This document shows positions 1-23,980 of a DNA stretch of 29,577 bases, piece after piece (position 1 is the stretch's first letter; each line of letters begins with the position of its first letter). The position numbers and the translations under genes are program-made. This stretch comes from an uncultured cyanobacterium. GTDB lineage: Bacteria > Cyanobacteriota > Cyanobacteriia > Leptolyngbyales > Leptolyngbyaceae. The notes below the pieces were generated by a model that saw only the letters and a program-made list of their open reading frames with translations, did no database searches and was not told where the DNA came from. The stretch lies in NCBI GenBank assembly GCA_963766075.1, contig CAVYAN010000066.1:1-29577 (forward strand), written 5' to 3'.

Positions 1-3000
1 GCCGAGGCGGGGGTGCAGGCTCCGGATTGGGAGGGGATTCGGGCGTTGTTGGAGCGGGCGATCGCGCGGTTTGAGGGGTTGCAGCGGTTGGAGTTGGTGG
101 GGAGCTGTATTCCGCTGTTGGAGCGGGTGTTGCAGAAGTTGAAGGTGTGGGCAGCCGCTGGAGGCGATCGCGCGGCGGGGGCTGGAGCTGCACGCGGGGG
201 CGGGCAACCGGACGCGGTTGTCCCAGGACTCTGGCTTTTTGGCGCGGGCGTTGCTGGAGCAGGGGCGGTGGGAACCGGCGCGGGAGGCGGCGCAGCGGGC
301 GTTGGCGGAGTTGGCGGGGGAACCGGCGGACTTGGATTGGCTGCGGGGGATGTATCGCTGTTTTGCGGCGGAGGCGGAGCGGGGGTTGGGGAATTTGCCG
401 GAGGCGATCGCGCTGCTGACGGCGGCGAATGCCCAGGTGGTGAGCGATTTGGGCTATCCCAAGCCCGCGATTCGGATTTTGGCGGTTCTGCGGGAGGTGC
501 ATTTGGCGCTGGGGCAGTACTGGGAGGCCTTTGAGGCGAAGCAGGCGCGGTTGTCGGTGGAGCAGCAGTATGGGCTGCGGGCGTTTGTGGGGGCGGGGCG
601 GTTGCAGGCGCAGCGGCAGGCGGTGGAGCGGGAGTTTGCGATGCCGACGGGGGGGCAGGTGGCTCCGGAGATTGCGGCAGCGGGACGGCAGCAGGATTTG
701 GCGCGGTTGGTGGAGCGGGTGGAGCGGCGGGATAATCGGCTGAATGTGATTCATGGTGGCTCGGGGGTGGGGAAGAGTTCGCTGGTGAATGCGGGGTTGG
801 TGCCAATGTTGCGGCAGGGGCCGATCGCGGCGCGGGATAATTTGCCGGTGGTGGTGCGGACCTATACGCAGTGGGTGGATGAACTGTCGCAGCAGTTGCA
901 TCGGGGGCTGGTGGCGATCGGTCGGCGATCGGCGGAGCCCGGTTTGACGGGCGACCCTGCTGGTTCTGCATCCGCAGTTGCCAGTGCCAGTCTTGTCTCT
1001 GGCCCTGCCGAACGGGCAATTTCTACCGCTGACCCCCAAGTTTCCAGTTCTGACCCCCAAGTTTCCAGTTCTGAGCCACACCCGTCTCACGCTGAACCAC
1101 ACCCATCTCACTCTGAACCACACCCGTCTCGCTCTGAGCCACAACGCGTCTCCCTCTGAACCGCATCCGTCTCGCCCTGAGCAACAACGGTCTCCCTCTG
1201 AACCGCATCCGTCTCACTCTGAGCCGCAACGGTCTCCCTCTGAACCGCACCCGTCTCGCTCTGAGCCGCAACAGCCGAGTTCTGAACCCGAAGTTTCCAA
1301 TTCTGAACCACAACTTCCGACTCCGGACTCCCGACTCCCGACTTCCGACTTTAAAGCGCGCGCGTTGTTGGCGCAATTGCGGCAATTGGATCAGCAAGGC
1401 TTGCGATCGGTGCTGATTTTTGACCAGTTTGAGGAGTTCTTTTTTGTCTATCCCCGGCCGGAGGATCGGCGGCCGTTTTTTGAGTTTCTGGTGAAGTGTC
1501 TAGAAATTTTGTCGGTGAAGGTGTTTCTGTCGCTGCGGGAGGATTACCTGCATTATTTGCTGGAGTTGGGCCAGTTGGCGGGGATGCGGGCCACGGGGAT
1601 TGATCTGCTGAGTCAGAATGTGCGGTATGGGTTGGGCAATTTTGAGCCGCCGGATGCGACGGCGATTATTCAGAGTTTGACGCGGCGGGCGCGCTACTAT
1701 CTGGAACCGGCGCTGGTGGAGCGGTTGGTGGCGGATTTGGCGCGGGAGCTGGGGACGGTACGGCCGATTGAGTTGCAGGTGGTGGGGGCGCAGGTGCAGG
1801 CGGAGGGGATTCGGACGCTGGCGGCGTATGAGGCGTTGGGGGCGGAGCCGAAGCTGGCGCTGGTGCAGCGGTATGTGGCGGCGGTGGTGGGGGACTGTGG
1901 GGCGGCGCAGCAGCGGTTGGCGGAGTTGGGGCTATGGCTATTGACGGATGAGCGGGGGACGCGGCCGCTGAAGACGCGGCTGGAGCTGGAACTGGGGTTG
2001 CGGGAGTTGGGGGTGGATGGCGGAGCAGACGGTGCCGGGGGGGCGCTGGATTTGGTGTTGGGGATTTTGGTGGGGTCGGGGTTGGTGGTGGTGGTACCGG
2101 AGGTGCCGGTGGATCGGTATCAGTTGGTGCATGACTATTTGGCGGCGTTTATTCGGGCGCAGCAGGAGCCGCGATTGCAGCAGGTGATGGCGGAGTTGGA
2201 GGCGGAGCGGGAGAAGACTCGGCAGTTGCAGACGCAGTTTCAGGTGACGGAGCAGGAGTTGACCCAGGCGCAGCAGACGTTGACGCTGACGCAGCGGCGG
2301 ACGCGGCGGCAGGTGACGGTGGGGCTGGCGGCGATGGGGATTGCTGCGTTGGTGGCGACCAGTATTGCGGGAAGTACAGTGAGCAATGCGCGGCAGGATG
2401 CTAGCCGAAAGATTGAAGCGGCGAATCAGCAGGCGCGGACTAAAACCCAGCAGGCGGATCGCCGGGTTGAGAAGCGACGTCAGCAGGAACGGAGCAGAGA
2501 TCGGAGTTGAAACAGCAAGGGCACGGTCAAGACGGCGGAGCTGAAAGTGAAGGAACACATGAGATTACCTGCCGATTGTGAGCAGGTTTGTGGCAAAGGT
2601 ATTACGATTGCGCATCAACAGGTGGCACAGTCGAATGCCGCGCTGGAGCGGGTTAATCGGAAAAGTAAGGGGCAACAGCAGAAAAGCCCAGGCAGAAAAG
2701 GCAAAAGTCGTGGCAGAGCCACAAGTCAACGATGCTAACTGAATTTTGCAGGCGGTCGAACCGATGCAAGTGGATCTAGACAAGGCCCAGACCGAAGGCA
2801 GGCAGGACGGCGACTTTGCTGGGTAGGTCGCAGATCTTGGATGCGCGCGTGATTTCCAAGCAAGTATCGCAGCTTACGGCAGATGCCAAGGGCCTCAGTA
2901 AAAAGCGCCACCAGAAAGCGTGGAAGCCAAACTGCAGAACGCAAGATGCCTTAAGCAACGTCTGGAGCGTCCAAGAACGCAACAGCCCCAAAGCCAATCA

Positions 3001-3208
3001 AGGCAGTGTCTGGAGCGTGAATTTCAGTCCCGATGGCAAAACCATTGTCTCCGGCAGCTCTGACGGCACCGTCAAGATCTTCGCTTGGGATGTTGAGCAG
3101 TTGCTCCACCTGGCCTGCGCCTGGGCCAACGACTATCTGCGCACCAACCCGGATGTGAGTGATGGCGATCGAGCGATCTGTGGCATTCCTGCGCGGCCGC
3201 GGCAATAG
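1..3208 (+). pseudogene. 5'-partial, multiply frameshifted large STAND-family protein: helical/TPR-like region, nSTAND1-type P-loop NTPase, TM helix, coiled coil, single WD40 repeat and C-terminal cap (pseudogene or sequencing errors)
   Basis: ORFs 13-534, 218-1159, 978-2510 and 2816-3208 join into one protein. Walker A GGSGVGKS at 755-778 and Walker B VLIFDQFEE at 1410-1436, followed by LSLREDYL, RPIELQVVG and YQLVHDYL motifs. Hydrophobic VTVGLAAMGIAALVATSIAG. WD40 QGSVWSVNFSPDGKTIVSGSSDGTVKI, then LACAWANDYLRTNP. Frameshifts at ~150 (extra G), 1147 (extra C) and several in 2470-2940. Confidence 0.85.
1029..1350 (+). repeat. Coding 21-bp tandem repeat (~14 units, SEPHPSR/SEPQRSP) followed by CCCGACT-like heptamers
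   Basis: Units such as CTGAACCACACCCGTCTCGCT, CTGAGCCGCAACGGTCTCCCT and CTGACCCCCAAGTTTCCAGTT, ending in ccgact-ccggact-cccgact-cccgact-tccgact. Confidence 0.92.
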
Positions 3209-3246
3209 GCTCCACTGAGAAGCCGGGGGTCTGGTCTGGCTTGTCT

Positions 3247-3443
3247 GACCCCGTAGGTCTCAGAAACCGGGGTTCTTTCGTGGTCTTGGGTAGATTGCCA
3301 GCCGCCTCGCTAGAACCCCGGTTTCTTGGCCAGGGCGATCGCATTCGTTTTGGCAATTCAGAGGAGATCGCGGATGGAGGGGAGAGATCGCGTTCCCTAA
3401 TTTTGGCAATCCAAGGGCAAGAAAGAAGCGAGGGTGCGATCGC
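3247..3443. repeat. Composite intergenic repeat: 65-bp hairpin A (3262-3326), then HIP1-B1-HIP1*-B2-HIP1*-C-HIP1
   Basis: AGAAACCGGGGTTCT-N35-AGAACCCCGGTTTCT. GCGATCGC at 3335 and 3436, GAGATCGC at 3364 and 3384. 3250-3391 is nearly identical to 6177-6318. Confidence 0.93.
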
Positions 3444-3559
3444 GCTCTCCGCAACCACATCCCCACCCACCCGTAATCTCAGAAACCGGGGTTCTTTCAT
3501 GGCCTCGGGTAGCTTGCCAGCCATCTTGGCAGAACCCCGGTTTCTTGGCGTCCCCCTAC
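3444..3559. repeat. Second copy of hairpin module A (stem 3481-3545) with its ATCCCCACCC leader
   Basis: Identical 15-bp inverted arms and a 35-nt diverged interior; the leader matches 6166-6188. Confidence 0.9.
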
Positions 3560-3656
3560 CGGTTCAGACGGGGCCACCCATCCAGGGCCGCGGATTGGCG
3601 CGATCGGACGGATCCTTTAGAATAGACAGAGTGCTGTACAACAAGAGGCTGTGCAA

Positions 3657-3929
3657 GTGGACATCATTAGCCTGAATACATTCAAAGAATCATTAAAAGA
3701 GTATGTTGAGCAAATCACCCAGCAACATACCCCCATGAAAGTGACCAACCACCAGGGGCAAGACTTCGTCGTCATCAGTCTTGAAGATTGGGAACAGGAA
3801 CAAGAAACCCTATACATTCTGCAAAACAACAGCCTGATGCAACAAATCGTAGACTCAACAACAACCCACACCCAGCAGCAAGGATATCGCCCATCCAACC
3901 CAGAAATCGATGAGATCCTTAGTCTTTGA
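3657..3929 (+). CDS. yefM: Type II TA antitoxin, Phd/YefM family
   Basis: MDIISLNTFKESLKEYVEQI...PMKVT...DFVVISLEDWEQEQETLYILQN is a YefM pattern. AAGAGG lies 8 nt before GTG 3657 (ORF track starts at 3651). Overlaps the toxin gene. Confidence 0.88.
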   Translation: MDIISLNTFKESLKEYVEQITQQHTPMKVTNHQGQDFVVISLEDWEQEQETLYILQNNSLMQQIVDSTTTHTQQQGYRPSNPEIDEILSL

Positions 3930-4179
3930 AGGAAATACCTGGGCGGCCTATGAGCAATTAAGAACGCAGGATCAGAAATTGCATCGCAACCTCTGCAAAC
4001 TGCTGAAGGAAATGTTGCGAGAGGATCCGACCAAAGGGCTGGGCAAACCCGAACCACTCAAACACAATCTATCGGGTCTATGGTCCCGTCGGATTTCCCA
4101 AAAAGATCGGGTCGTCTACAAGTTCGATGATGACTATGTTTACATCTTTGCGATTGGCGGACACTACGACAGTTTTTAG
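3910..4179 (+). CDS. yoeB: Type II TA toxin, Txe/YoeB family mRNA interferase
   Basis: GLGKPEPLKHNLSGLWSRRISQKDRVVY...IGGHY signature; downstream of and overlapping yefM. Confidence 0.93.
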   Translation: MRSLVFEGNTWAAYEQLRTQDQKLHRNLCKLLKEMLREDPTKGLGKPEPLKHNLSGLWSRRISQKDRVVYKFDDDYVYIFAIGGHYDSF

Positions 4180-4223
4180 AGTTGCCTCCACTCCATTCAG
4201 TCACCTATTAAGCCAACAGACCC

Positions 4224-4283
4224 GCGATCGCGTTCCCTAATTTTGGCAATCCAAGAGCGAGAAAGAAGCGAGGGTGCGATCGC
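4224..4283. repeat. HIP1-C-HIP1 module (60 bp), direct repeat of 3384-3443
   Basis: GCGATCGC-GTTCCCTAATTTTGGCAATCCAAGAGCGAGAAAGAAGCGAGGGT-GCGATCGC; 3 mismatches versus 3384-3443. Confidence 0.95.
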
Positions 4284-4310
4284 TCAAAAGACCCAATCAG
4301 GCGGATGAAT

Positions 4311-4553
4311 TCATAAGGGCATTGACTCTGGCTCCGCCGCCAAGCCAATCTGAGGCTTACAGTCCGTAAACGTCAAAGATTCGGAGTCCAGAAAGTCCGC
4401 CAGCGCCATTTCCAGCACGAGTTCTGTCGTATAGCCAATCTGTTTGGCATAGTTAATATAGGCATTGCGGATATGTTCCGGTAGCACGGCTAGGAGCATG
4501 ACGGCGGCATCGTGGCTGAGATGCTGTGGGCTAGTTTGTGGCAAAGTTTGCAT
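4311..4553 (-). CDS. Small hypothetical protein (80 aa)
   Basis: Protein-like helical ORF; AAGGTGG upstream of the ATG; starts 8 nt after the GIY-YIG stop. Confidence 0.7.
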   Translation of the reverse strand: MQTLPQTSPQHLSHDAAVMLLAVLPEHIRNAYINYAKQIGYTTELVLEMALADFLDSESLTFTDCKPQIGLAAEPESMPL

Positions 4554-4561
4554 AACCACCT

Positions 4562-4818
4562 TCAGTCTCTATAAGGATATTGGGCGTTGTATGGCGGCCG
4601 CGTAGCACGGATCAAAATACTTTCTAGCGCATCTCCCAATTTTAGAGCATCGACCATCGACAGCGGTGCAAAAGCGATCGCGACATCTTGATGATCGTAA
4701 TCATCGAGCCATGACCAGGTGCAGGCTTTGTGTCCCCCACGAAAGCGCTCTCGCAGCTTCTTGGCTTTTCCGATGTAAAGTAGCCCCCCTTGCCGATGTC
4801 TCACGGCGTATAAACTCG
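4562..4818 (-). pseudogene. GIY-YIG nuclease family protein, 5'-truncated
   Basis: Frame reads (P)SLYAVRHRQGGLLYIGKAKKLRERF...LESILIRATRPPYN, with both Tyr motifs plus R, E and N. No own start; upstream sequence belongs to another gene. Confidence 0.75.
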
Positions 4819-5021
4819 GTTGAGTCCTCTGCGCCCAACGGCATCACACCCACCAGACTTTGCGTCCAAGGATCCAGATCCGCGATCGCGCTCAAATTAG
4901 AGATGGGAAAAACCGATGGTTGCGTTTCCTGCTGAATCGAAGTCAAAACAGCCTGCACTAAACGCCAGCGATCGCCAATCGGTAATTGCAAGATCTGCTG
5001 TTCCAATTCTGGTAACGTCAT
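4701..5021 (-). pseudogene. Antitoxin-like small protein, 3' end apparently replaced by out-of-frame GIY-YIG sequence
   Basis: MTLPELEQQILQLPIGDRWRLVQAVLTSI...LDPWTQSLVGVMPL resembles cyanobacterial TA antitoxins (recognition, not a search). After DSTE (~4815) the ORF runs through the GIY-YIG coding sequence in another frame. Confidence 0.55.
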
Positions 5022-5130
5022 CGGCATCCTCTCCACCTAGGGGCATAGGCCTATTGTCAACGGCGATCTCGCTGTGTAAGTAAGAAAGTTCTTTGACGCT
5101 TGGGTAGGTGCTAGCGTCTGCAGACCGGTC

Positions 5131-5192
5131 GGCCAGGGCGTCCGTTCGTTTTGGCAATTCAGAGGCGATCGCGGGTGGAGAGGAGCGATCGC
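5131..5192. repeat. Degenerate HIP1-B1-HIP1-B2-HIP1 module
   Basis: GGCCAGG-GCGTCC-GTTCGTTTTGGCAATTCAGAG-GCGATCGC-GGGTGGAGAGGA-GCGATCGC; matches 3328-3391 and 6255-6318. Confidence 0.92.
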
Positions 5193-5240
5193 GCCACTCA
5201 AATCAAGGAGGGGCGATGGTTGCCAAACCGACGTCACTGA

Positions 5241-6082
5241 TCATCCCCCCGCAACCACACTCCCAAACTCCTGAAGCCCCGTAAAATCCAACAACGCCTT
5301 GCTCAGAGACTCCAATTGCTCCAGGGATAGAGCGTGAATGGCCGTGATTAAGCGATTAAATGGGCCCACGCGACGAGATAACTGCCGAAGAACGAGCGAT
5401 CGGTCTCCTTGTTGCTGTCCTCTAGCCTCTCCCTTCTCCGCCTCTTCCCGCAGCACCCGCGACTCCGACAAATTCAGTCCCAACATTGCTTCAATCTCCT
5501 CTCGACTCAATGTGCTCAGCCTGTAAACCATGTATTGTCGTCACTAAATCCATTATCGCTGATTCTCAGCCGGATCAGCCCGCGCCTGCTCCAGCAGAGC
5601 TTTAGCCTGGGCTACCGCCTGGGTTTCCGGAGCCATCATCAACTGCATCAGTTGCACCCCCAAAGAGTCTTGTTCAGAAGCATGCAGCTCATCGAGATAA
5701 ATCTGTTGGACCTGAGAGCCACTCAGCAATGAACGATGCAAGGTGGCATTACTGGGCTCTAACCGTCGAGATGCGAAAAAATCAGCACCCCGCGCCAGTC
5801 ACTGTAACGACCTTCAGCCCGACGCAAAAAGTAAGCAATTTCGGCAAAGAATCGGTCCTACAGTGCTTCATCCTTTTGCAACTGGACTTCAGCAAAACAC
5901 ACAACCTGAAATGCAGCCGTAGCCAGGGGGAGAAAGACACCATCGATGCGAAAAGCCGTTTCTTTGACTTCAACCGATTCAAATTGATAGCCCCCAGAGT
6001 CGGGGGGTGGCTCAGCCATCAGCTCAAACAAAAGTCCTGGGAACTGAGAAAACAATTTGTAAAAGAGAGTGTCGCGACGCAT
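5241..6082 (-). pseudogene. Rpn-family (DUF2887 + C-terminal DUF4351-like) PD-(D/E)XK protein, fragmented
   Basis: 5858-6082 MRRDTLFYKLF...YQFESVEVKETAFRIDGVFLP...FAEVQ; 5553-5741 QVQQIYLDEL...LGVQLMQL; 5241-5531 LSREEIEAMLG...LVLRQLSRRVG...LSLEQLESLSKALLDF. Broken by stops and frameshifts. Confidence 0.85.
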
Positions 6083-6142
6083 CGGATAGCCAGAAGCAAA
6101 TCAGTTCAATTGTACCATAATACAACCAAGCACCTCTAAACC

Positions 6143-6354
6143 GCGATCGCCACATCTGCGACGATATCCCCACCCGCCCGTAGGTCTCAGAAACCGGGGT
6201 TCTTTCGTGGTCTTGGGTAGATTGCCAGCCGCCCTGCCAGAACCCCGGTTTCTTGGCCAGGGCGATCGCGTTCATTTTGGCAATTCAGAGGCGATCGCGG
6301 ATGGGGAGGAGCGATCGCACCTCTCAGTTTCAACAACATGACCACCGCGATCGC
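6143..6354. repeat. Composite repeat HIP1-A(hairpin 6189-6253)-HIP1-B1-HIP1-B2-HIP1-28nt-HIP1
   Basis: Perfect GCGATCGC at 6143, 6262, 6291, 6311 and 6347; modules match the copies at 3250-3391, 3459-3545 and 5131-5192. Confidence 0.93.
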
Positions 6355-6392
6355 GCCATAATAATGACATCTCTGTCTCAGCGTGAGCGATT

Positions 6393-6689
6393 ATGACCCT
6401 CGAACAAGTTGTCCTAGCCCGACTCCGCACCTTGCCACCAGCAACCCAGCAGGAAGTGCTTAACTTTGTCGAATTTCTCGCCAACCGCCAACCTCAGGCC
6501 CAACCCGCCGATCTATCCACCCATCCCGGCCTCATGCATCAACTCCGTACTGCTGGATTCATCGCGATCGCCACCGCCGCCCCAGCCAATGCCCTTTCCG
6601 ACCAAGCCCTAGAAGCATTCGTCAAAACCTTACCGCCCACCCCAATTCCCACCTCTCAAATCATCATTGAGGAACGCGGTGAATGGTAG
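6393..6689 (+). CDS. DUF2281-like antitoxin
   Basis: MTLEQVVLARLRTLPPATQQEVLNFVEFL N-terminus and PTSQIIIEERG C-terminus; stop overlaps the PIN toxin start. Confidence 0.75.
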   Translation: MTLEQVVLARLRTLPPATQQEVLNFVEFLANRQPQAQPADLSTHPGLMHQLRTAGFIAIATAAPANALSDQALEAFVKTLPPTPIPTSQIIIEERGEW

Positions 6690-7148
6690 TCGCCTACTTC
6701 TTGGACACCAGTGCCCTCGTCAAGCGCTACGTTCCAGAAAAAGGGACCGCTTGGATACAAGCCCTCACCGCCCATCCTCCGAAATATTTTGCTGGTTGCC
6801 CGAATCACAGCCGTTGAAATCATCAGCGCGATTGCCCGTCGCCAACGAGAAGCCAGCCTCACAACCAACCAAGCCCAACAACTCCGCCTCGTTGTGCAGC
6901 AGCACTTCACAACCCAATACCAAATCGTTGAACTCACACCCAGCATCGCTGCTCTGGCTGGTGAATTATGCGATCGACAACCGTTGCGAGCCTATGATGC
7001 CGCACAGCTTGCCTCCGCCATCAGTATTCTGCCGATCATTGCCCAATCGTCAGAAACGAGCCTGACCTTTCTAAGCGCAGACGATCGCCTACTCAATTCT
7101 GCGAAATTAGAGCACCTGCAAACGGCAAATCCCAACTCTCATTCCTAG
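6683..7148 (+). CDS. vapC: VapC/PIN-domain toxin, one frameshift at ~6770-6780
   Basis: From ATG 6683: MVVAYFLDTSALVKRYVPEKGTAWIQ. Continues in the next frame: ILLVARITAVEIISAIARR...LRAYDAAQLASA...FLSADDRL. The break lies in short C runs. Confidence 0.85.
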
Positions 7149-7222
7149 AGTCCCAAGAACCAATCGAGATCATGGCTAGAGGGAGCGATCGTGGTCGGAG
7201 GAACAGGCGATCGGTCGCTGCA

Positions 7223-7849
7223 TTACAGAGGGTCGTGACTCGAAGCATAGCCATCCACAGGCACAAAGCGCTGCGTTTCCGGTCGATAACTCCAACTAAT
7301 TTGCGCCGGATCTTTTCCCCGGCTCCATTCGCTCCAATCCGGCAAATGCTTGCGCCGTCGAATCGTGTCCGGAGAGACACCGAAACGCTGGGCAAGCTGA
7401 GTTTGGTTGAGCGGCAGAACCTCGGTCACAGTCATTGGACCTCGATCTTGAAATTCCGCCTCCGGCAGTTGCAAGGTCGGAAAAACGTAGAAAATATCCC
7501 CCGTTTGGGTCACTTCATAGCGAGCCGAAAACTCGCGAGCCTTGGTGTCGAGGTATTCCTGGGCGATGGCAGCGGGCTGTTGAGCCGCGATCGCAAAATC
7601 CAGCACCATCATGCGTCCCTGATGTTGCTGCAGCAAGTCATAGAAAACCCCATCTAACGCCACCCGAGCCTGACGGTGATGGCGCTGATACCGCCACCAC
7701 ACCCAACCCCCGCAGCCCAACGGCACCAACAGCGGCAACAGCGGCGTAATCACCCGCGCCACAGTCACACTCACCGAGAGCGCGGCGATCGCCCCACCCA
7801 CATACAGCCAAGATCTCAGGGCACCGTCACTCGGCGATGGGCGCGCCAT
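7223..7849 (-). CDS. Hypothetical membrane protein with possible C-terminal HTH
   Basis: Two N-terminal hydrophobic segments and LNQTQLAQRFGVSPDTIRRRK near the C-terminus. Confidence 0.75.
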   Translation of the reverse strand: MARPSPSDGALRSWLYVGGAIAALSVSVTVARVITPLLPLLVPLGCGGWVWWRYQRHHRQARVALDGVFYDLLQQHQGRMMVLDFAIAAQQPAAIAQEYLDTKAREFSARYEVTQTGDIFYVFPTLQLPEAEFQDRGPMTVTEVLPLNQTQLAQRFGVSPDTIRRRKHLPDWSEWSRGKDPAQISWSYRPETQRFVPVDGYASSHDPL

Positions 7850-7944
7850 ACCTCCACCCCCCAACTAAAACCCGCAAGCAACCATGGGCTAATAATACAT
7901 ACGATCTAATTTCATCGCAATCCCCTGTCATCCTCTGCTTTGAT

Positions 7945-9850: not shown

Positions 9851-10259
9851 GCGCGATCGCCCGGAAAGTCCTCACAAATCATAGTCAACCGTTGTATTCA
9901 ATATCTGTATCAAAAGGAGAAGAAGGCTGGAAAAGATTCTGGAAATTTCGCGATCGCCTAGAATCCTCCAGGCCAACCTTACTAAAATTAACCCGGTTCA
10001 AGTATGCCGTCCAATCCAGTGACTTGGCGTCGTCAAGGCCATTCCCAGGGGCTGTATCACTGCTGGCAACAGTGTGCGGCGCTCAGACCTATCAGTGTTG
10101 AGCGTGCTTTATCGCGTGTTGCTTTATTATTTTATTTATCGCGTGTGCTTCCTTTTATAAGGATGATCTCTGGTACTGGAACGCAAAACTGGCTACATTG
10201 AGAGTACCATTGCTGGCTCGATGTTTTCTGGAATGGATGTTTTACGGGATGACTGTTCT

Positions 10260-10895
10260 ATGACTGTCGCTCAACCGCTGAACCCGACTCAATCGCCGTT
10301 TGAATCCCACGCCGTTCCCACCCCCAAGCGATTCTCCGTGGATGAGTATCACCGACTCACGAAACTGGGATTTTTGGCAGCGGGCGATCGCATTGAACTG
10401 ATTCGCGGGGAATTGATTTCGATGGCAGCTAAAGGCACCCCCCACGTTTTTTGTACGACGCGCTTGGGGCGGCAGTTTGATCGGCGGCTAGGAGATCGCG
10501 CGGTGGTGCGCTGTCAGGATCCCATCACTCTGGCCCCACAAAGTGAACCCGAACCTGACGTGGTGTTGGCGCGGGGCGATGAGGCGGACTATATGGCCCA
10601 CCACCCCTATCCCGAGGATATTCTGCTGGTGGTGGAAGTTGCGGATTCGACGGTGGCTTACGATCGCACCGTCAAGCTTTCCCTCTATGCCGAAGCGGGG
10701 ATTGCAGACTACTGGATCGTTGATTTAACGACCCGCCGTTTGGAACACTACAACGAACCCTATCAAACCAGCCAAGGCGAATTTGGCTACCGTCACACCC
10801 AAATTTTCTTACCCGACCAGTGCGTCACCATTCCTAGCTTTGCCGAAGTCAGCGTGGATTTGAGCCAAATTTTTCCAGAACCCATCAGTCGATAG
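10260..10895 (+). CDS. Uma2 (DUF820) family endonuclease
   Basis: RFSVDEYHRL, RIELIRGELI, SEPEPD, LLVVEVADST, KLSLYAEAGIADYWIVDL. Confidence 0.92.
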   Translation: MTVAQPLNPTQSPFESHAVPTPKRFSVDEYHRLTKLGFLAAGDRIELIRGELISMAAKGTPHVFCTTRLGRQFDRRLGDRAVVRCQDPITLAPQSEPEPDVVLARGDEADYMAHHPYPEDILLVVEVADSTVAYDRTVKLSLYAEAGIADYWIVDLTTRRLEHYNEPYQTSQGEFGYRHTQIFLPDQCVTIPSFAEVSVDLSQIFPEPISR

Positions 10896-22726: not shown

Positions 22727-23980
22727 TTACGCGATCGCCTTGGCCAAATTGGCATACCCCACGACTTTATCAAAAGCGCCCAAGGCATAATGCGCACTTT
22801 TGAGGCGACTCAGAGTTTGGGCTTCGATCCGCGTATCTTGCATCTTGCGCGCCACGGTGAGGCGGCTTTCATAGCAACTAATCGCTTCATCGTATTTGCC
22901 CAGGGCCTCGTAGGCAATCCCCATTGTGCTGAGGGCCTGTTCTTCACCCCGCAGATCGTCCAAATTATGAGCAACGACCCATCGTTGCTGGCTGCAATCG
23001 AGCGCCCGGTCATACTCCCCTAAGGCCGCATAGGTATTACTCAAATTGCTCAGGACCTGACCTTCGGTGCGGCAATTGCCCAATTCCCGCGCTAATACCA
23101 GTCGTTGGTGATAATAGCCCACCGCTCTTCTATAGTCACGCACTGCGTAGCAGGCATTGCCCAAATTGCGAAGAATTTGCTCCTCTAGATAATCGTCCTG
23201 GAGCTCGCGGGCGATCGCTAAACTCTGGACCTGGTAGTGAATGGCGGTTTGGGGATCACCCTGGGTTTTGTAAGTCAAACCCAAATTATTCAAAGCTGCC
23301 ATCTCACCCCGGAGGTCTTGGGTGGCCCGAGCCGACTCCAGGCTCTGATTTTGATAGACAATCGCCTGTTCAAGATCATCCAGATGGCGATAGGCATTCC
23401 CCAGATTGGCCAAAATCTTAGTGATGTGGCGACGATCCGAAAGCGGTTGAGCCAGTGCTAATGCGCGTTGCGAATAGTCAACAGCCGTCGCATAGCGTTG
23501 CAGGCAATAGTACGCCAAACCCATACTGCTCAAGGCTTTTGCCTGCCCACCTAAATCCTGAATACAGTGGTAAATGGCATGGGCAGCCTCAAAGGAACGT
23601 AGCGCCTCTGGGTACTGACTCGCCTGCTGCTGGTCACTGCCCTGGCGCAAGAGGCGATGGGCAGAGTCTTGGGGAGTAGCGCCTGAAATCGGAATTGGGC
23701 CTAATCGGGGGCTGGCCGTCGAGTTCTGGGCAGTGGCTAAAGGCAGCATTGTGGCCGGAGGGGGACTTGCTTCCCATGCGGACAAGTCACCCCGCAGGCA
23801 ATCTTCGGACAGCCTCCCGTTTTCTGGGGCAATCACCCCTCTGCCTTCTGGGGCAATCACCCCTCTGCCTTCTGGAGCAATCATCCCTCTGCTTTCTGGG
23901 GCAACCACAGTATCGAGCAAGGCCAGGTTAGAGAGGGCGGTGTTGGCGATAAGGTTGGAGTACTCGGTTGGGCTAAACAT
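22727..23980 (-). CDS. Tetratricopeptide repeat protein with low-complexity N-terminus
   Basis: About seven 40-aa repeats of the type ALNNLGLTYKTQGDPQTAIHYQVQSLAIARELQD; GAGGGG upstream of ATG 23980. Confidence 0.88.
   Translation of the reverse strand: MFSPTEYSNLIANTALSNLALLDTVVAPESRGMIAPEGRGVIAPEGRGVIAPENGRLSEDCLRGDLSAWEASPPPATMLPLATAQNSTASPRLGPIPISGATPQDSAHRLLRQGSDQQQASQYPEALRSFEAAHAIYHCIQDLGGQAKALSSMGLAYYCLQRYATAVDYSQRALALAQPLSDRRHITKILANLGNAYRHLDDLEQAIVYQNQSLESARATQDLRGEMAALNNLGLTYKTQGDPQTAIHYQVQSLAIARELQDDYLEEQILRNLGNACYAVRDYRRAVGYYHQRLVLARELGNCRTEGQVLSNLSNTYAALGEYDRALDCSQQRWVVAHNLDDLRGEEQALSTMGIAYEALGKYDEAISCYESRLTVARKMQDTRIEAQTLSRLKSAHYALGAFDKVVGYANLAKAIA
23822..23908 (-). repeat. 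Coding 24-bp tandem repeat (~3.5 units, APEGRGVI)
   Basis: TTCTGGGGCAATCACCCCTCTGCC units on the + strand. Confidence 0.9.

Follow-up and report, generated by a model that had tools for sequence, protein, structure and literature searches.

How does a row of small toxin-antitoxin and nuclease genes come to stand between copies of the same spacer DNA, on a contig in which we found no tyrosine recombinase or Y1 transposase? The question is raised by positions 3247–7148 of a contig from an uncultured cyanobacterium of the Leptolyngbyaceae (CAVYAN010000066.1, here C66; its whole 29,577 nt are called the window), where four cassettes (yefM-yoeB, a GIY-YIG unit, an Rpn-like gene and a DUF2281-PIN pair) alternate with spacers joined at the octamer HIP1 (highly iterated palindrome 1). 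The host genome, G000, is 5.05 Mb long and 85% complete, and holds 6947 HIP1 sites (1.38 per kb); this abundance and the gene content both point to a cyanobacterium. A first-pass annotation had read the array as an integron-like platform of exchangeable defence cassettes, its spacers shuffled from four modules with HIP1 as the crossover point, and had pointed out that the window encodes no recombinase, as was borne out. The comparisons below suggest that the array is probably a recombinase-less cassette chain formed by homologous recombination, with HIP1 as a favoured joint and addiction retaining the cassettes. The weight of this finding rests mainly on its generality and on the arrays of another genus, g29; the window array is largely decayed.

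Spacer units and joints in the window

The repeat layouts, lengths and coordinates first reported were confirmed on the sequence. Module B1 (21 nt) lies at 3343–3363 and 6270–6290, B2 (12 nt) at 3372–3383, 5173–5184 and 6299–6310, and C (44 nt) at 3392–3435 and 4232–4275; a hairpin, A, is present in three copies, with folding z-scores of −3.5 (A1) and −5.2 (A2) on the + strand. All modules stand on one strand while the genes between them face both ways, again as first described. The division into four parts A, B1, B2 and C did not hold. C aligns over its full length with B1 plus B2, and none of 2000 shuffles beat the local score once the outer HIP1 octamers had been removed, so that C is a paralogue of B1 plus B2, and B and C are two variants of one repeat unit, R. 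On this alignment the spacers are made of two parts, hairpin A (plus leader and tail) and unit R.

Read along the + strand, the first spacer consists of A1 (3262–3326; 15-bp perfect inverted arms, no strand assigned), R in its B variant (3335–3391; HIP1, B1, near-HIP1, B2, near-HIP1), R in its C variant (3384–3443; near-HIP1, C, HIP1) and a leader with A2 (3444–3549, arms 3481–3545). The second spacer is a C variant with exact HIP1 at both ends (4224–4283), which together with 3384–3443 brackets cassette 1. The third joins a decayed A tail to a B variant (5131–5192). The fourth begins with HIP1, leader and A3 (6143–6261, arms 6189–6253) and continues at 6262–6354 with a B variant in which HIP1 is exact three times, then 28 nt of unique sequence and another HIP1 within a promoter-like site (6338–6365). 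Two near-HIP1 octamers close the array (7185–7214).

Not every boundary octamer is an exact HIP1. Those at 3364 and 3384 differ from it at one position each, and the octamer at 5138, on the left edge of the third spacer, is a different one, the similarity there extending back to 5131, into the decayed A tail. Across the 1161 nt of the five spacers there are 11 exact HIP1, in copies that are not independent; the genome average is 1.38 per kb. When a HIP1 edge was defined as a repeat end at most 3 nt from an exact HIP1, which has a background of 0.75% per position, five of the 10 ends of the locus's five repeat pairs qualified. The A leader does begin 15 nt past a HIP1 in two copies, a spacing that had been singled out; 7 of the 15 letters between HIP1 and leader are alike in the two copies, and the constant distance is a matter of plain homology.

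B and C are confined to this locus: none was found elsewhere in G000, weak short matches only were obtained for A, B and C in 89 same-family genomes, and the two matches of the B/C motif in metagenomes were both chance, inside one coding gene. A genome-wide kit of such parts is thus not supported.

Contigs from other studies were used to compare the layout (runs X1–X4, one from each of four studies, aligned at a likeness of 82; these are four of 14 runs carrying matches, the ten others, each with a share of at most 0.12, having been left out). They bridge the junctions from the end of the STAND gene to A1, from A2 to yefM, from yoeB to C and from C to the GIY-YIG unit, so that mis-assembly, which had been named as a way in which the repeats could prove artefactual, is unlikely. 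In X1, X2 and X4 the GIY-YIG unit is about 98% identical to that of the window (8–12 differences in 556–587 nt) and 180 letters longer. Beyond this unit, at 5057, all four runs have a 10–13-nt linker and then C, where the window has another spacer. Further joints at HIP1 are A to C (X2), A to B1 (X3), and A to C across 10 nt and B2 to C (X4, X1). Missing cover of the PIN cassette in X1 and X4 and uneven contig depth were not counted as absence. By this comparison, and by those of G076 and g29 below, cassettes and spacer parts have been gained, lost and reordered between lineages, and this much of the exchangeable platform stands.

Direct repeats around toxin-antitoxin genes in cyanobacteria

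In G000, 93 intergenic direct-repeat pairs (spaced 250–5000 nt, with gene calls from our own caller) were found in 52 loci. Pfam, run on 120 of the 126 open reading frames (ORFs) of 20 chosen regions, identified toxin-antitoxin or Rpn genes at most of these regions. Repeat ends fell on exact HIP1 in 16 of 76 cases at 14 toxin-antitoxin or Rpn loci and in 0 of 110 at the 38 others, a contrast weakened by the picking of the 14 loci after their repeats had been seen and by most of the 38 lying outside the Pfam scan. HIP1 edges are present at nine of the 52 loci; Pfam-confirmed toxin-antitoxin or Rpn genes are there in every one of the nine. Three HIP1-bounded duplicates of the C26/C8 type were dismissed as paralogous coding sequence or similar.

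Toxin-antitoxin chains with 55–160-nt repeat spacers and few or no HIP1 edges were seen at C72:220443–223140, C38:38237–42693 and on C27; the C72 and C27 spacers are apparently copies of a gene 3' end. Two sets of repeat pairs (C26:26751–28474 and C48:84708–89388) resemble CRISPR arrays by eye and may be such.

Bracketing was surveyed in other cyanobacterial genomes at the best YoeB, DUF2281 and thioredoxin matches (7, 3 and 5 short loci were dropped, respectively, and one own-genome locus was excluded). A direct repeat brackets 3 of 22 YoeB loci and 4 of 26 DUF2281 loci, with HIP1 in two cases each, and 0 of 25 thioredoxin control loci. One bracketed locus, in G076, has the order repeat-yefM-yoeB-repeat, and its congener G002 has a single repeat copy at the same place; the content differs between conserved flanks, as in the definition of a minimal mobile element. 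The duplicated stretch of G076 starts at HIP1 and ends about 13 nt beyond the last HIP1. In G024, HIP1-like octamers separate spacer parts of 14–21 nt, which follow each other as a|b|c|d in one spacer and as e|a|c|b|c in another, an arrangement that looks like the module shuffling first proposed for the window, in another genus. Empty-site comparison in genera g25 and g20 gave no result, as synteny breaks there. A locus of G021 (L158:6400–7999) carries tandem DUF2281-PIN pairs separated by 43–228-nt repeats with HIP1, and is a duplication-type array.

Crossovers in the repeat of genus g29

Genus g29 (48 genomes; perhaps Pseudanabaena, as a guess) was reached via one DUF2281 locus. Its arrays are built on a 67-nt repeat with a central HIP1 and no fold, detected in 10 of 10 genomes of g29 and in 1 of 141 sampled from elsewhere; the motif gave 0 matches in viral contigs. 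Among 162 repeats in the 41 loci examined, from 34 genomes, orientation is single within each locus and HIP1 is intact in 148. Of the 249 ORFs between repeats 232 are co-oriented, and a start codon follows within 200 nt after 125 of the 162 repeats, at a median of 37 nt. The 128 usable repeat copies make 115 distinct neighbour pairs. The cassettes scanned are of DUF433, DUF5615, PIN-DUF2281 and nucleotidyltransferase types, and restriction-modification genes adjoin some arrays. When the profile of this repeat was searched against G000, the best E-value was 0.019, and none of the matches listed lay on C66. The arrays (for example L157:5684–9635, L183, L184 and L191–L193) often stand beside a block of three genes, which encode a protein of about 212 aa, a P-loop ATPase of about 640 aa and a DUF1802/Mrr-like protein. 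The gene secA was rejected as an array anchor: its synteny is not kept, and the repeat was absent in 19 of 19 regions.

Recent exchanges, in which the flank common to both members of a pair is at least 97% alike, were used for mapping (56 same-left and 39 same-right pairs, in 13 and 12 cassette groups). In same-left pairs the whole left half of the repeat was common in 18 of 56 and the right half in 0; in same-right pairs the whole right half was common in 9 of 39 (baselines for the halves, 6.9% and 0.7%). Immediately to the right of HIP1, linkage was 0.51 (0.32–0.72) to the right cassette and −0.04 (−0.18 to 0.13) to the left one; immediately to its left, it was 0.14 (−0.17 to 0.51) to the right cassette and 0.28 (0.15–0.50) to the left one. 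A model with a step at HIP1 outdid one of uniform crossovers; the margins at the two thresholds used were 18 and 36 composite log units. These figures do not constitute a formal test, and the pairs are non-independent. These patterns suggest that recent g29 exchanges map mostly to the HIP1 core. Retention of linkage is well under 1, which points to additional exchange elsewhere in the repeat.

CRISPR-like insertion, in which the target repeat is copied each time, was ruled out in g29, since neighbouring copies do not resemble each other more than copies in general: of 87 adjacent pairs none is identical, and their halves are 0.675 and 0.674 alike, compared with 0.658 and 0.637 between genomes.

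A step of this kind would also be produced by a dedicated HIP1-directed pathway, a cyanobacterial counterpart of the integron in which some nuclease or recombinase, encoded elsewhere and possibly sensing the methylation of HIP1, would cut or cross over at HIP1 and so shuffle the cassettes. The step and the better fit of its model speak for such a pathway, and so does the reordering of 12–21-nt modules between HIP1-like octamers, as modules of this length are too short for efficient RecA pairing. Against it, HIP1 is too frequent in G000 to suffice as a site, some arrays have no HIP1 edges, the halves of the g29 repeat are only partly linked to their cassettes, and no recombinase gene was found beside the arrays. 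Going by its title, a 1997 study by Robinson reportedly found HIP1 excision to be about as frequent in E. coli as in Synechococcus, which also counts against a dedicated pathway. Three precedents in its favour are cited in the available text of other works: HIP1 site-specific recombination in PCC 7002 and insertion of the small dispersed repeat SDR5 within HIP1 (both PMC4390886), and a HIP1-flanked 352-bp excision (PMC13756078). We consider a dedicated pathway unlikely.

Integrases, decay and a probable homologous mechanism

The integron reading calls for sites recognized by an integrase. An intact IntI is encoded in G000 (C41:95200–96165; TIGR02249, 465 bits for a cut-off of 265), and the array could in principle be a cluster of attC sites lacking an integron-integrase (CALIN), served in trans by this enzyme with A as attC. 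CALINs and cyanobacterial integrons have been described (PMC4889954, in the part available), and AAC and GTT stand close to the ends of A. The dispersed hairpin is otherwise unlike such a site: it is a perfect 15-bp inverted repeat with no bulged bases or unpaired spacer. Typical attC sites have AAC...GTT boxes, bulged L boxes and an unpaired spacer. Our own attC-geometry scan found 0 sites in 3100–7400 and two at an integron remnant on C65, for a background of 4 in 172 kb. The cassettes of the window are bounded by the unstructured B, or by C, and not by A. In g29 the repeats are unfolded, and 21 of the 48 genomes have no IntI match at an E-value of 1e-40, some of which carry arrays (including the single-contig G190). 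As no attC-like sites were found and arrays exist in genomes without IntI, the array is not an integron; the CALIN reading is largely refuted and has very little probability left. None of 70 g29 flanking proteins matched tyrosine or serine recombinase families (70 of the 89 listed, the rest being repeats of common neighbours or scanned separately), and eight of them matched insertion sequence transposase families.

The C65 remnant has attC-like sites at 44589–44675 and 48666–48750. G000 also has three internally deleted intI copies, at C31, C65 and C17, and 16 sites (e.g. C41:94877, C8:68339, C17:164304 and C31:37499) with a dispersed 280–900-nt element like the DNA downstream of intI. This element has a core of two HIP1 separated by 18 or 20 nt and a 75–105-aa ORF, and is possibly a relic of an integron end, similar to a miniature inverted-repeat transposable element.

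Hairpin A has the form of a repetitive extragenic palindrome (REP) doublet. Exact A-type doublets occur in 35 stretches of GTDB genomes, most of them in one cyanobacterial metagenome-assembled genome and some in Chloroflexota, and related arms are present in G000 at C10, C61 and C119. As these doublets are dispersed and often adjoin ordinary or housekeeping genes, A is a dispersed REP-doublet hairpin, a passenger and not a cassette boundary. The A motif had 0 matches in viral contigs, and Rfam gave for A2 a single sub-threshold match to a microRNA hairpin, judged to be chance. A locus of another genome, L249, has A and the adjoining HIP1 module in common with C119 of G000.

The condition of the cassettes raises another explanation, namely that they are passive relics: duplication, slippage and deletion between abundant HIP1 and REP hairpins in decaying junk would leave HIP1 edges by micro-homology deletion, with toxin-antitoxin genes gathering by unrelated routes. 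The families of all four cassettes were confirmed with Pfam and NCBIfam. Only cassette 1, the yefM-yoeB pair (3651–4179, +), is intact. Cassette 2 (4311–5036, −) consists of a small ORF remnant (4816–5036), a GIY-YIG remnant (4562–4815) and a gene for an 82-aa cyanobacterial hypothetical protein (4311–4559), and it lacks at 4815/4816 the 180 nt that contigs from three of the four runs contain. The Rpn-like gene of cassette 3 (DUF2887 plus DUF4351; 5241–6082, −) is broken by a stop and frameshifts, and in cassette 4 (6393–7148, +) a DUF2281 antitoxin gene (6393–6689) is followed by a frameshifted PIN/VapC-like toxin gene (6683–7148). Three of the four cassettes are thus broken, as is the left neighbour, a TPR/nSTAND1/WD40 gene in several frames with most WD40 repeats missing (218–3208, +). 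Decay and consensus error are indistinguishable here as the cause of these breaks, since a search for the source reads gave no run with half of the words of the window. Besides the breaks, the restriction of B and C to the window locus and the presence of A beside housekeeping genes agree with passive origin. It is opposed by the same cassettes having other neighbours in four studies, by the clean filled and empty pair G076/G002, by the conserved, co-oriented g29 repeat with its many distinct junctions, and by the absence of brackets at the control loci; we therefore regard it as improbable, more so than a HIP1-directed pathway.

The right neighbour (7223–7864, −) encodes about 200 aa of no confident family. 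The role in defence first proposed for the cassettes is conjectural. Toxin-antitoxin pairs can act in defence; PADLOC matched 0 of 10 window proteins (0 of 13 proteins overall). In the left STAND/WD40 gene, 21-nt tandem repeats lie at 1001–1314, and the region near 2500–3000 is strongly frameshifted (decay or assembly error). Outside the array, the window also holds a putative Uma2 endonuclease gene (10221–10895), one of 39 Uma2 matches in G000, and a 24-nt tandem repeat within a TPR protein gene (23822–23908).

Homologous recombination, which we favour as the probable mechanism, would act as follows. The cassettes lie between direct copies of 55–140 nt of local spacer DNA, whose ends are often on HIP1. 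DNA of a relative would enter, with homology holding it at one end and a HIP1 common to both DNAs making the join at the other, and this micro-homology join would duplicate the spacer. RecA-type crossovers between spacer copies could then insert, excise and reorder cassettes, mostly but not only in the HIP1-containing stretch of perfect identity. Addiction would act as a filter, so that mainly toxin-antitoxin cassettes persist between deletion-prone repeats. Each lineage and locus employs its own repeat; in g29 a single repeat serves as the platform throughout the genus, directly upstream of the cassette start codons. Natural transformation is the most likely route of DNA uptake, and ComEC is encoded in G000. 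A published effect of HIP1 on transformation, dependent on homology and on methylation, agrees with this mechanism: according to the available part of that report, HIP1 within homology arms raised integration up to 7-fold, and more than 100-fold when methylated (10.1101/2024.09.10.611283).

The window cassettes are oriented +, −, −, +, and as the sequence reads, every one opens with HIP1 or near-HIP1; a −10-like box of its own comes no more than about 30 nt later, ahead of its genes, so that a cassette could work in either orientation if these boxes serve as promoters. The promoter scan found only two promoter-like sites, for 2.7 expected by chance, both across HIP1 or near-HIP1 octamers: the one at 6338–6365 and, by consensus match only, one ahead of yefM (3595–3623, +) that spans the near-HIP1 at 3600.

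Several observations weigh against this mechanism or limit the part of HIP1 in it. First, neither recombination nor circles nor transformation were observed. Second, HIP1 is not required for cassette arrays, since 5 of the 14 toxin-antitoxin or Rpn loci of G000 have no HIP1 edge. Its two largest arrays have repeats of other kinds, one of which seems to be a protein gene's 3' end; HIP1 edges were counted at 0 of 14 ends on C38 and 1 of 18 at C72:220–223 kb. Third, two contig joints lie outside HIP1 (in X4 yoeB meets the A leader, and in X2 the switch is within A), and that at 5057 diverges 5–11 nt inside HIP1; the contigs themselves are short, none spans the array, and they may stem from other loci or organisms. 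Fourth, 41 of 48 toxin-antitoxin loci in other genomes are unbracketed. Finally, the g29 repeat has no detectable homology to the window parts and is thus an analogue. Over all its pairs, repeat polymorphisms keep 8% and 14% of the possible linkage gain, compared with about two thirds for the flanks; in the recent pairs, which are non-independent, the linkage of each half is only 0.28–0.67; and no invariant stretch of the repeat is longer than the HIP1 core, which recombination would favour in any case. HIP1 thus appears to be a favoured joint, as the first reading had it, and not the sole crossover point.

A wider proposal, possible in our view and rather doubtful, is that a host pathway directs crossovers to (methylated) HIP1 in short homologous repeats and so provides a phylum-wide, integrase-free counterpart of the integron. 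If so, any HIP1-bounded spacer could grow into a cassette array, g29 would have fixed one repeat that includes promoter parts and serves the whole genus as a platform for its toxin-antitoxin and restriction genes, and HIP1 would gain a natural function readable from population data.

The arrays provide natural, countable recombination junctions with HIP1 as favoured joint and show one way in which cassettes can be shuffled, much as in integrons, with no integrase involved. They hint that HIP1, whose role, open for three decades, is called unresolved in the accessible text of PMC5861425 and PMC13756078, marks natural recombination joints. The 67-nt g29 repeat with its polymorphic halves is a ready substrate for experiments on HIP1, methylation and RecA dependence, and such arrays may explain the build-up of toxin-antitoxin genes in cyanobacteria. 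No published account of HIP1-jointed cassette arrays was found in the literature searched, which most subscription journals lie beyond.

Among known systems, integrons and CALINs are similar in having arrays of small cassettes, toxin-antitoxin pairs included, that are separated by related sites and reordered between strains (PMC4889954, as far as available). Integron cassettes are co-oriented and mostly promoterless, and co-orientation is also seen in g29. Here there is no attC geometry and no linked intI, the repeats vary by locus and lineage, the window cassettes face both ways, with −10-like boxes of their own, and the crossovers are not confined to one position. The pdif sites are 28-bp XerC/XerD binding sites in alternating orientation. 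The pdif (dif) modules of Acinetobacter plasmids are likewise shuffled, rich in toxin-antitoxin genes and served in trans by host machinery, with no recombinase in the array (PMC13141974, accessible part), whereas the repeats described here are chromosomal, direct, 55–140 nt long and built around HIP1.

REPINs are REP doublets, and RAYTs are the transposases associated with them. Hairpin A has the REPIN form, with two short inverted arms, a variable loop of 30–40 nt and dispersal in intergenic DNA, also in other genomes. It differs in that C66 has no Y1 transposase and that no A arms (at most one mismatch) were found near the four Y1 genes of G000, one of which has a sub-threshold RAYT score. 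Elements of the SDR5 type, small inserts inside HIP1 in Nostocaceae, are 21–27 nt long. The accessible text of PMC3184786 connects REPs with an E. coli toxin-antitoxin locus that is variable. HIP1 also stands at the joints in smtB excision, in a PCC 7002 plasmid and in the Chi-like boost of transformation (PMC13756078, PMC4390886, PMC5861425, 10.1101/2024.09.10.611283); as far as the available parts of these works go, the cases are single deletions, laboratory constructs or small elements, with no natural multi-cassette arrays or population-scale crossover mapping described.

Minimal mobile elements of Neisseria, according to the available text of PMC8627216, have variable content at a fixed place and are moved by homologous recombination only. 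They swap one block between conserved genes, whereas here internal direct repeats chain, excise and reorder single cassettes, with a palindrome at the joints. In conclusion, by their probable mechanism the arrays are nearer to a minimal mobile element than to an integron.

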